DNA of 64,000 nucleotides from Acidihalobacter sp. GTDB lineage: Bacteria > Pseudomonadota > Gammaproteobacteria > DSM-5130 > Acidihalobacteraceae. The stretch spans positions 239-64,238 of the forward strand of contig JALUXU010000020.1 in NCBI GenBank assembly GCA_027013225.1, written 5' to 3'. The notes beneath the pieces were generated by a model. That model made no database searches. It worked only from the letters and a program-made list of their open reading frames with translations, and was not told where the DNA came from. Below, piece by piece: positions 1-2,599 of this stretch (positions are counted from its first letter, which is position 1; the number at the start of each line of letters is the position of its first letter). The position numbers and the translations under genes were made by a program.

Positions 1-171
1 CTGGGTGTCGTGAACCGGATGCAGGCCGGGAGCATCGGGATGAGCGAAAGGGCTGCCAGCAACAAAATCGATGACGATGGTTAGCGTCTTCTTGGCGGCA
101 TCGAATCGCACGCCTTCAACGTGCCAAGGCTCGGCCACCCCAAGGGCGGCTTCAAACAGTGGGTTGTTCAT
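1..171 (-). CDS. ISL3-family transposase, N-terminal part (runs off the window)
   Basis: Manual translation MNNPLFEAALGVAEPWHVEGVRFDAAKKTLTIVIDFVAGSPFAHPDAPGLHPVHDTQ is the typical ISL3 N-terminus; GGAG RBS upstream. Confidence 0.85.
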   Translation of the reverse strand, partial: MNNPLFEAALGVAEPWHVEGVRFDAAKKTLTIVIDFVAGSPFAHPDAPGLHPVHDTQ

Positions 172-232
172 GTCGGTACTCCATATCCATCAGTGATGGA
201 CGTAGACTACCCACTCGAAATTCAAAAGAGGC
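1..232 (-). mobile_element. Left end of an ISL3-family insertion sequence (continues upstream of the window)
   Basis: Minus-strand transposase N-terminus plus a putative terminal IR reading GCCTCTTTTGAATTTCGAGTGGG (about 210-232). The exact end is inferred because the other IR is outside the window. Confidence 0.7.
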
Positions 233-243
233 AAGGAAACAAC

Positions 244-918
244 ATGGAATGGCTGATATTTCTGGCTCTGCTGGTTCTGTTGGTTCTCATAGCATTTGCA
301 GCACTTGCGAAAAAAGGAGGCAACACGGATGAATTTTCGTATGAAAAAAATGAACCGTTGTTTTCGCCAGCTGAAAGGTCTTTCTTTGGTGTGCTAAGCC
401 AAGCGGCAAAAGACAATGCCGTTGTTTTGGGGAAGGTGCGTGTAGCTGATGTCCTCCGCCCTCCCAAAGGTATGGGAAGAAGCAACTGGCAAAAAGCATT
501 CAATCGCATCTCCGCCAAGCACTTCGATTACGTCATTTGCTCCCCTGATACCCTTTCGGTTTTGGCCGCAATCGAATTGGATGATAAATCGCACAATAAA
601 GGTAAGCGTGCGGAGCGAGATCGTTTCCTTGAAACGGCATGTTCCGGCGCCGGGCTACCATTGCACCGTTTTAAGGCCGCTGCTACGTACAACATTAGTG
701 AAGTAAGAAATGTCCTTTTTCCTCCTCCGGAAGAATTAGCTGAGGAGTCTTCGTTGCCTGAAGCACCTGGTCCCGAAGTCACTGAAGAGCAGCTTTGCCC
801 GAAATGCTCATCACCTCTTGTCAAAAAGGTGGCTAAGAAAGGGGAGCACAAAGGCACTGAGTTTCTCGCATGTAGCTCATTCCCGAAATGTCGCTACATC
901 GCTAAGTCAAATGCATAA
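244..918 (+). CDS. DUF2726 (PD-(D/E)XK-like) protein with N-terminal TM helix and C-terminal topoisomerase-type C4 zinc finger; integron-type cassette ORF
   Basis: MEWLIFLALLVLL TM; GKVRVADVL...KHFDYVIC...AIELDDKSH; CPKC...FLACSSFPKCRY; AAGGA RBS before ATG 244. Confidence 0.85.
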   Translation: MEWLIFLALLVLLVLIAFAALAKKGGNTDEFSYEKNEPLFSPAERSFFGVLSQAAKDNAVVLGKVRVADVLRPPKGMGRSNWQKAFNRISAKHFDYVICSPDTLSVLAAIELDDKSHNKGKRAERDRFLETACSGAGLPLHRFKAAATYNISEVRNVLFPPPEELAEESSLPEAPGPEVTEEQLCPKCSSPLVKKVAKKGEHKGTEFLACSSFPKCRYIAKSNA

Positions 919-1002
919 CAAGTACATCATGTCGTTCGCCTACGGCTCACTGGGACGCGCCACCGCTGCATGGCGGCTCGCCCCATATGATGGACGTTAG
1001 CG
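913..1002 (+). other. attC (integron cassette recombination site)
   Basis: GCATAAC (R'', overlapping the stop codon) ... GTTAGCG (R'); inner imperfect arms CATCATG/CATATGATG and GGGACG/CGCCC; about 90 bp. Confidence 0.75.
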
Positions 1003-1542
1003 CGCCGCGCAAAGCGTGGCGCATCTTGCCGGGTGAGAGTCCCGGCATGGAAAGGGTTAACCCCCCACCATTATCGAGTGTTGCGCCTCTGGCGGAACGG
1101 TGCACTGGTTAAGGAGACTGGTGCATTCGTGAACAAGAGAGGTGAAGCGTACACAGAGAATGTTATAGGCCGTTTGGTCACGTAGGACCTTAGAGATGGT
1201 ATCGCTTCGAAATGAACAGTTCCGGTTGGCCAGCGTTGTAACGTCCGTGAAGCCAACACAAAGCAGGCGTATTGGTGAGCCTGTGGAGAGCCGGCGGAGT
1301 TCTCAAGCTACGGCATGTAACAAGAGATGCGTCATGAACGCGGGAGATCCCATGGGCACCAAGGGAAGGGTAAGGCATACAGAACCGCCAGAAACGGGAA
1401 TGTTGCCAGACGGCCAATGGGAAGTCGGATCACTTCATAGTACTCGGAGACGGTAGGGCCGAATTACGTAGAGCCAACCTTCTTGCGGGCACTATCCACC
1501 AAGGCGAGCACATTGAGCGCTCACCGATTCCAAAATCCCTAC
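1000..1542 (+). mobile_element. 5'-fragment of a group II intron (bacterial class E-like), truncated
   Basis: 5' end GCGCGCC (GUGYG variant); GGGTGAGAGTCCCGG; GAAGCC; GGGAAGTCGGATCACTTCATAGTACTCGGAGACGG; followed by an RT N-terminal remnant. No domain V/VI found. Confidence 0.75.
1468..1542 (+). pseudogene. Remnant of intron-encoded reverse transcriptase N-terminus
   Basis: VEPTFLRALSTKASTLSAHRFQNPY resembles the class E IEP start (xPTSLRxIAxKA...HRFQNLY); similarity is lost after about 25 codons. Confidence 0.65.
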
Positions 1543-1906
1543 TGCGACGAGAAAGGTCAGCTCCGCGACGCAGTGAAGTCCGGTGGTCACCAATGCACGT
1601 ATATCCGCATGATCCACCGTCGCCATCTGCCTTACTGGCCCTGAGCCAAGGGGCTTGACATGACACAGGAACAGACAAATGAATAGGCAAATACCATGAG
1701 ACAATGTCAGTAGTGACACCCACCTATTGACAGGTTAAAACATATCAGCCCGGATGTTTCACAAATTCCCGCCGCTCCCTCTGAAATCCCCCTTTTGAAA
1801 ACAATATCCGGCGCGATATCGGCACTAGTTATGAAACATTCGGGTTAAAAACTTTCGCCCAATGCGGTAGAGTAAACCAATACTATTAATTGTAAAAGGA
1901 GTCGCC

Positions 1907-2599
1907 ATGTCCAAAGACAATCTGATTGCTCCATCCATCCTCTCTGCCGATTTCGCGCGTTTGGGGGAAGAGGTGGACAATGTGCTCGCCAGTGGGGCGG
2001 ACATCATCCATTTCGATGTAATGGATAACCATTACGTGCCAAATCTCACTATCGGCCCGCTGGTCTGTGATGCATTGCGCAAGCACGGCGTGACGGCACC
2101 GATAGACGTTCATCTCATGGTCAAGCCGGTGGACCGCATCATTCCGGATTTCGCCAAGGCGGGCGCCACGTACATCACTTTTCATCCTGAAGCTTCCGAA
2201 CATATCGACCGCAGTCTGCAGCTGATTCGTGACAATGGCTGCAAGGCCGGACTGGTATTCAATCCCGCCACTCCCCTCGATTATCTGGATTATGTGATGG
2301 ACAAGCTCGACATGATCCTGTTGATGTCAGTCAATCCAGGATTTGGCGGCCAGAAATTCATCCCCGCCACGTTGCGGAAATTGCGTGAGGCGCGGCGTCT
2401 CATTGATGACGGCGGGCTGGATATCCGCCTGGAAATCGATGGCGGCGTAAAGGTGGACAATATCGCTGAAATCAAGGCTGCAGGCGCAGATACATTCGTG
2501 GCTGGTTCGGCAATCTTCGGTGCTGCCGTCAAAGACGATCCTCATCATTACGACAGCGTGATCGCTGCGATGCGGGCCGAGCTGGCCAAGGCGGGCTGA
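1907..2599 (+). CDS. rpe: Ribulose-phosphate 3-epimerase
   Basis: [36 protein letters not shown] motifs. Confidence 0.97.

Follow-up and report, generated by a model that had tools for sequence, protein, structure and literature searches.

The window, the whole stretch of 64,000 nucleotides of Acidihalobacter sp. DNA that was analysed, begins 238 nt inside its contig and carries the following features at its left end:

1 to 232, minus strand: left end of an ISL3-family insertion sequence (Pfam HTH_Tnp_ISL3 and Zn_ribbon_ISL3)
244 to 918, plus strand: cassette gene for a DUF2726 protein with a C-terminal Top1-type zinc ribbon (ORF list, Pfam)
913 to 999, plus strand: attC, top strand (sequence and homology to relatives' attCs)
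992 to 999, plus strand: IBS1, GGACGTTA, the 8 nt of 5' exon that adjoin the intron (perfect complement of 1239–1246)
1000 to 1542, plus strand: class E-type group II intron, 5' fragment comprising domains I–III and the start of domain IV (RF02005, homology to the relative L111)
1239 to 1246, plus strand: EBS1, UAACGUCC, in a domain I hairpin loop (loop and 3' stem, RF02005 positions ~139–169)
1462/1463, plus strand: junction of a 71-nt internal deletion (three-way alignment with the relatives L111 and L062)
1471 to 1542, plus strand: reverse transcriptase (RT) remnant EPTFLRALSTKASTLSAHRFQNPY, 24 codons, RT0 region (23 of 24 residues match the L111 IEP)
1549 to 1764, plus strand: 3'-terminal segment of an IS110-family element, without transposase (87–90% identity to five copies in genome G001)
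1770 to 1850, no strand assigned: short dispersed repeat, flanked by the IS remnant and rpe (80-nt matches, 90–95% identity)
1907 to 2599, plus strand: rpe, ribulose-phosphate 3-epimerase (ORF list), the first ordinary chromosomal gene past the relic

The ISL3 element at the left edge retains the N-terminus of its transposase (1–171) and a terminal inverted repeat that ends at 232; a copy on contig C12 of the same genome is 95% identical and diverges exactly after the terminal repeat (...AAAAGAGGC at 232). Between the end of the element and the cassette ATG lie 11 nt; the upstream boundary of the cassette has been removed by the element. The string GATGGACGT at 199–207 was considered as a second attC end and rejected, since it belongs to the terminal repeat of the ISL3 element. 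The ISL3 element at the start of contig C20 is also found in C12 and C71, and the start of contig C39 of the same genome overlaps it by 66 nt; because the assembly breaks at IS copies, the wider surroundings of the cassette relic are unassembled. The cassette ORF itself has 224 codons, is preceded by an RBS at 233–243, and encodes a product that matches PF10881 (E 6.5e-41) and PF01396 (E 4.3e-11).

Downstream of the intron fragment, the IS110-family segment is recognized from its copies in G001, which lie ~165 nt downstream of a DEDD_Tnp_IS110/Transposase_20 gene in all three cases examined; degenerate copies of the same segment are present on contigs C59 and C29 of the window's own genome. 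The adjacent repeat at 1770–1850 has matches at many G001 sites and on contigs C6 and C22 of the window's own genome and forms an imperfect inverted repeat with 1738–1764; this ~80-nt unit may be an IS110 target repeat or a REP-like element. Related genomes have unrelated ordinary genes upstream of rpe, and no integron integrase gene (intI) scores over the TIGR02249 cut-off in the window's own genome; hence, the cassette and its intron are a relic stranded in the core genome beside rpe, with IS debris on both sides, and not a live integron.

The R''(RYYYAAC)...R'(GTTRRRY) palindrome of a cassette attC is present at the 3' end of the cassette ORF (913–999). Its R'' box, GCATAAC at 913–919, overlaps the TAA stop of the ORF, and its R' box is represented by the first four bases alone (GTTA, 996–999), the remainder having been split off by the intron and lost. 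Over 90 nt, the site shares 80% identity with an attC of genome G026, and it partially matches two attCs of an array in G002 (570 nt apart) and one attC of G005; in both of the latter genomes, intI genes over the TIGR02249 cut-off lie directly beside the attCs (G002 contig C39, G005 contig C3). The site can be folded with TAAC/GTTA and CATCAT/ATGATG pairings, and the fold energy of neither strand is better than that of shuffled sequence, so that the attC call rests on homology to the attCs of relatives. On the strength of that homology, we conclude that 913–999 is a real attC.

A preliminary description of this DNA had placed the intron directly after GTTA of R', in the orientation of the cassette, and had read its 5' end as GCGCG and not as GUGYG; both readings stand, as the intron and the DUF2726 ORF lie on the plus strand and GCGCG occupies 1000–1004. 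The Rfam search that it proposed returns RF02005 (group-II-D1D4-6) at 1036–1309 on the plus strand, over the full model and at 95.7 bits (E 1.4e-26; gathering score 49). What is retained is the 5' 542 nt of the intron, the sole copy in the genome. The same description had proposed comparing EBS1 and IBS1 with the 3' end of the attC, and here eight Watson–Crick pairs are found, or ten contiguous pairs counting one wobble. The position of EBS1 is kept in 38 relatives (UAACG-type) and co-varies with the 5' exon (exon/EBS1: ACGUUA/UAACGU, GCGUUA/UAACGC, CUGUUA/UAACAG, CCGUUA/UAACGG), and 11 of 2000 permutations of the exons reach the observed level of pairing. The EBS1–IBS1 pairing thus places the 5' splice site after GTTA and makes GCGCG the real start of the intron. 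Indeed, the GCGCG end is shared by at least 13 independent relatives, the other 5' ends of the lineage being GUGCG, GAGCG and UCGCG, and we judge from these comparisons that it is the true intron end and not a private mutation. No EBS2 complement was found for exon positions −9 to −20 of the window copy.

The closest relative, L111, comes from a gammaproteobacterial MAG and is 95% identical to the window copy over 996–1462 and 94.5% identical over 1455–1545. In L111, a full-length intron, domains V and VI lie downstream of the sequence for an IEP of ~456 residues. Aligned with L111 and L062, the window copy lacks 71 nt at 1462|1463, a gap bordered by short direct repeats, GGCCG(G)AT, that took with it the IEP start codon (ATG) and ~21 codons. 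The preliminary description had suspected a shortening between the ribozyme motifs and the RT start, which corresponds to this deletion, and its estimate that the RT stops after about 25 codons is borne out by the 24 codons that we count. At 1542, inside the RT gene, homology to the relatives ends and the 3' end of the IS110-family element then begins. A tblastn search with the L111 IEP yields only the 1471–1542 piece from the whole genome, and no RT body, domain V or domain VI was found in the window or elsewhere in the 99.97%-complete assembly. Since the transposase is missing from the IS110 segment, a deletion with one end in the IS appears to have removed the remainder of the intron, and the window copy is an inert fragment, incapable of splicing or moving. 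Three GIIM (maturase) fragments lie elsewhere in the genome (C24:71710–71928, C67:111758–111961 and C33:16–144), each with an in-frame TAG, and the C33 fragment adjoins an IS110-like transposase; all three were considered as the missing 3' part of the intron and rejected, as tblastn with the L111 IEP misses them.

The likeness to class E and not class C that the preliminary description had seen is upheld by the relatives. The L111 IEP (456 aa) contains RVT_1, has a GIIM match below cut-off, and has no HNH/endonuclease domain. Domain V, which we located in ~20 relatives with an nhmmer profile (the window copy has none), carries a 5-nt loop (GAAAA, UAAUU or UAGUU) between GCGG and CCGC; such a loop, not a GNRA tetraloop, is an idiosyncrasy of IIE and IIF alike, and a trait of class E is the position of alpha' at the tip of the DId3 stem-loop, with an extra bulge (Nagy et al. 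2013; PMC3753933). The lineage IEPs share 60–84% amino-acid identity (L111, 65%) with a 75-residue piece of H.ha.F2, an element that its authors placed in bacterial class E and whose closest database match is Ps.tu.I1 (Sonbol and Siam 2021; PMC7923331). Domain V of the G009 relative equals that of H.ha.F2 at ~49 of 51 positions (counted by eye); the exact domain V strings of the lineage are missing from the supplement of Sonbol and Siam, and near-identical sequences are found there. An HRFQNLY-type N-terminal region occurs in 11 of 11 aligned lineage IEPs; among the solved intron RTs, those of class C resemble the lineage no more closely than 6me0 and LtrA do. None of the named class E/F host species (Photorhabdus, Clostridium beijerinckii, Dechloromonas and others) is among the 80 IEP-related loci, and neither Pseudoalteromonas tunicata (Ps.tu.I1) nor Halorhodospira halochloris is among the loci returned by exact DNA patterns. 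On the basis of the 5-nt domain V loop, the En-less IEP and the likeness to H.ha.F1/F2, we file the lineage as class E-type and not IIC, the E label being second-hand, via one paper's tree for H.ha.F2.

Relatives were gathered in four ways, by an exact domain I motif, IEP similarity, a 5'-end motif and a domain V motif, the last giving a sample chosen independently of the intron 5' end. Their insertion sites, which the preliminary description had suggested tabulating, share the attC position: GTTA precedes 156 of 185 distinct 5' junctions, and 36 of 47 in the domain V sample. By a crude arm-pairing score, 84 of 178 relatives have attC-like 5' exons, as do 39 of 1654 control CGTTA sites of the window's genome. 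That score finds no likeness to attC at roughly half of the CGTTA sites of the relatives, and some sites fall inside ordinary genes, so that base pairing might be enough by itself, attC being the richest source of the motif, and the attC hairpin may be dispensable for targeting. As both strands of an attC read RYYYAAC...GTTRRRY, orientation was judged against genes: a same-strand ORF of at least 50 codons ends at R'' in 56 of 81 attC-like cases, and the longest upstream ORF lies on the intron's strand in 65 attC-like cases and on the opposite strand in 13. The 3' exons of the relatives start GGC, GCT, TGC and so on, and after GTTA they complete plausible R' cores. The hosts are Gammaproteobacteria, Desulfobacterota, Bacillota, Nitrospinota and others, and some genomes carry many copies (~20 loci from Rheinheimera baltica alone).

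We hypothesize, and think it likely, that these introns form a large, multi-phylum class E-type lineage whose natural homing site is the top strand of attC at (R)CGTTA|, read by a conserved EBS1 (UAACGY), and which has not been described as such. It would constitute a second, independent and mirror-image form of attC targeting beside that of the IIC-attC introns, one in which the R' core is split but the intron could still be spliced out of the cassette transcript, and the lineage would tolerate 5' ends other than GU, including U at position 1.

Several members of the lineage are of interest in their own right. A large branch that shares its domain V with H.ha.F1/F2 (L300–L419 and L144–L223; e.g., L311, L341 and L368) starts with UCGCG after CGTTA, so that position 1 of the intron is U and not the near-universal G; in the domain V sample, 40 of 47 junctions are of this kind. 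Derivatives without an ORF (L075, L060, L112, L030, L032 and L077) measure ~530–780 nt, have intact domains V and VI and sit at CGTTA, and one of them, L075, is 89% identical to the window copy. At a second junction of L145, in a Desulfosarcina MAG, the intron starts ~1 base past the apparent 3' end (domain VI, ...CCTACCGCGAG) of another, which suggests head-to-tail tandem introns. Finally, the full-length L023 (G009:C57), from a genome of the same class, is inserted at GCGTTA between the 5' exon ...CAGCGTTA and the 3' exon TTTTATTT; no R''-type partner was found for it, the completed core is a poor R' box, and the insertion looks like one outside a recognizable attC.

The lineage might instead home to any (R)CGTTA through EBS1, and not to attC as such, in which case attC would dominate through the frequency of the R' motif. 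The many non-attC-like sites among the 178 scored 5' exons, several of them within ordinary coding sequence, fit this explanation, as does L111, which for all its 95% identity to the window copy sits at AATGTTA with EBS1 unchanged; moreover, in IIE/IIF ribozymes it is the EBS1–IBS1 contact that proved decisive (Nagy et al. 2013; PMC3753933). However, a match of 5–6 nt alone would offer ~1650 sites in the 2.3-Mb genome, yet insertions are enriched ~20-fold in attC-like contexts, and their orientation is strongly cassette-sense although both attC strands end GTTRRRY-like. Enrichment and orientation together suggest that more than a pentamer is read, be it structure, an IBS2-like contact or replication polarity, and we regard homing to the short motif as possible but somewhat doubtful.

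It is very improbable that the intron is a variant of the known group IIC-attC (class C) introns on the other strand. Targeting of attC is the textbook property of those introns (PMC3001079), and a sense-oriented IIC intron is on record in an Enterobacter cloacae integron (PMC7923331), but the best Rfam family of the fragment is RF02005, with a full-length domain I of ~270 nt, and its eight EBS1–IBS1 pairs contrast with the shortened EBS1 described for IIC; the domain V loops, RT N-termini and H.ha.F2 identities of the relatives, and the distance of the solved class C RTs, likewise speak against it. That the fragment is a working ORF-less intron served by an RT in trans we find scarcely credible: the ORF-less relatives with intact domains V and VI demonstrate that such derivatives exist, but in the window's genome these domains and any lineage IEP are absent from the whole assembly, and the homology to relatives stops inside an RT gene, with an IS remnant next to it.

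[quoted passage not shown] A mobile, En-less intron of class E type (IIB-like) would have retrohomed into the attC top strand between GTTA and the rest of R', the site being chosen mainly by the pairing of EBS1 (UAACGUCC) with the exon end (GGACGTTA). Other En-less introns suggest, by analogy, that insertion probably took place at a replication fork, where the DNA was transiently single-stranded; an intact, sense-oriented copy could presumably have spliced out of the cassette transcript. During decay, the RT would have lost its start codon to a 71-nt slip deletion, the intron would have lost everything past its position 542 to another deletion, with an end in the IS110-family element, and the ISL3 element would have cut away the upstream side of the cassette; the order of these events is one that we infer.

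The textbook integron-targeting introns are class C, lie antisense and block cassette transcription. A sense-strand class that relies on base pairing would mean that cassette arrays have been colonized at least twice, independently. Sense introns, if spliced out, could be transcriptionally silent passengers, yet they split R' three bases from the integrase crossover and may thereby freeze cassettes in place. In addition, the lineage would supply a compact natural scaffold of IIB type that is En-less and whose simple EBS1 could be re-programmed.

The established attC-targeting introns are those of the IIC-attC group (S.ma.I2 lineage), which occupy the bottom strand and run antisense to the cassettes, so that splicing out of a cassette transcript is impossible for them, and which depend on internal outward promoters (PMC3001079). 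The present lineage resembles them in inserting site-specifically into attC, next to a core that contains GTT at the base of the hairpin, and in its En-less IEPs (PMC3001079; PMC4424553); it differs in ribozyme and IEP class, in its use of the sense strand and the ORF-distal R' end, and in its long EBS1 pairing. In a 2015 review, class C is the one class listed as targeting attC, every other class being given homing sites (PMC4424553). With the IIE/IIF ribozymes Cl.be.I2 and Pe.th.I2 (Nagy et al. 2013; PMC3753933), the lineage shares an IIB-like ribozyme that measures a few hundred nt once the ORF is discounted, a domain V loop of 5 nt and an EBS1–IBS1 contact that is decisive. Those two are, in contrast, described as ordinary homing-site introns with IBS1 and IBS2, for which an attC target goes unmentioned (PMC3753933), whereas the 5' ends of this lineage depart from GUGYG (GCGCG, GAGCG, UCGCG) and no IBS2 was found for the window copy.

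In the open full text, nothing beyond the paper of Sonbol and Siam and reviews is found on class E in connection with integrons, or on group II introns and the top strand of attC. Specificity for attC at the level of a lineage thus seems to be undescribed in the searchable open literature, where print holds hints only (PMC7923331). The reports of non-C introns at attC that the preliminary description mentioned do exist, in that same paper. One concerns UHB.I2, likewise a non-class-C intron, which directly follows an attC, runs in the direction of the cassettes and has a non-canonical 5' end (UUGCG); it differs in being CL1/IIB1 and a single metagenomic case whose relatives are without a conserved target (PMC7923331). 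The other concerns H.ha.F1 and H.ha.F2, 5'-truncated elements in a CALIN of Halorhodospira halochloris that were assigned to bacterial class E, for which association and not homing specificity was reported (Sonbol and Siam 2021; PMC7923331). These belong to the same lineage as the window copy and, like it, are broken and lie in integrase-less cassette arrays beside IS elements; being 5'-truncated, they show no visible 5' junction, target or EBS1, whereas the window copy is truncated at its 3' end and shows all three. The window copy, although functionless, is hence of value because its 5' junction survives, whereas that of the only published class E examples does not.
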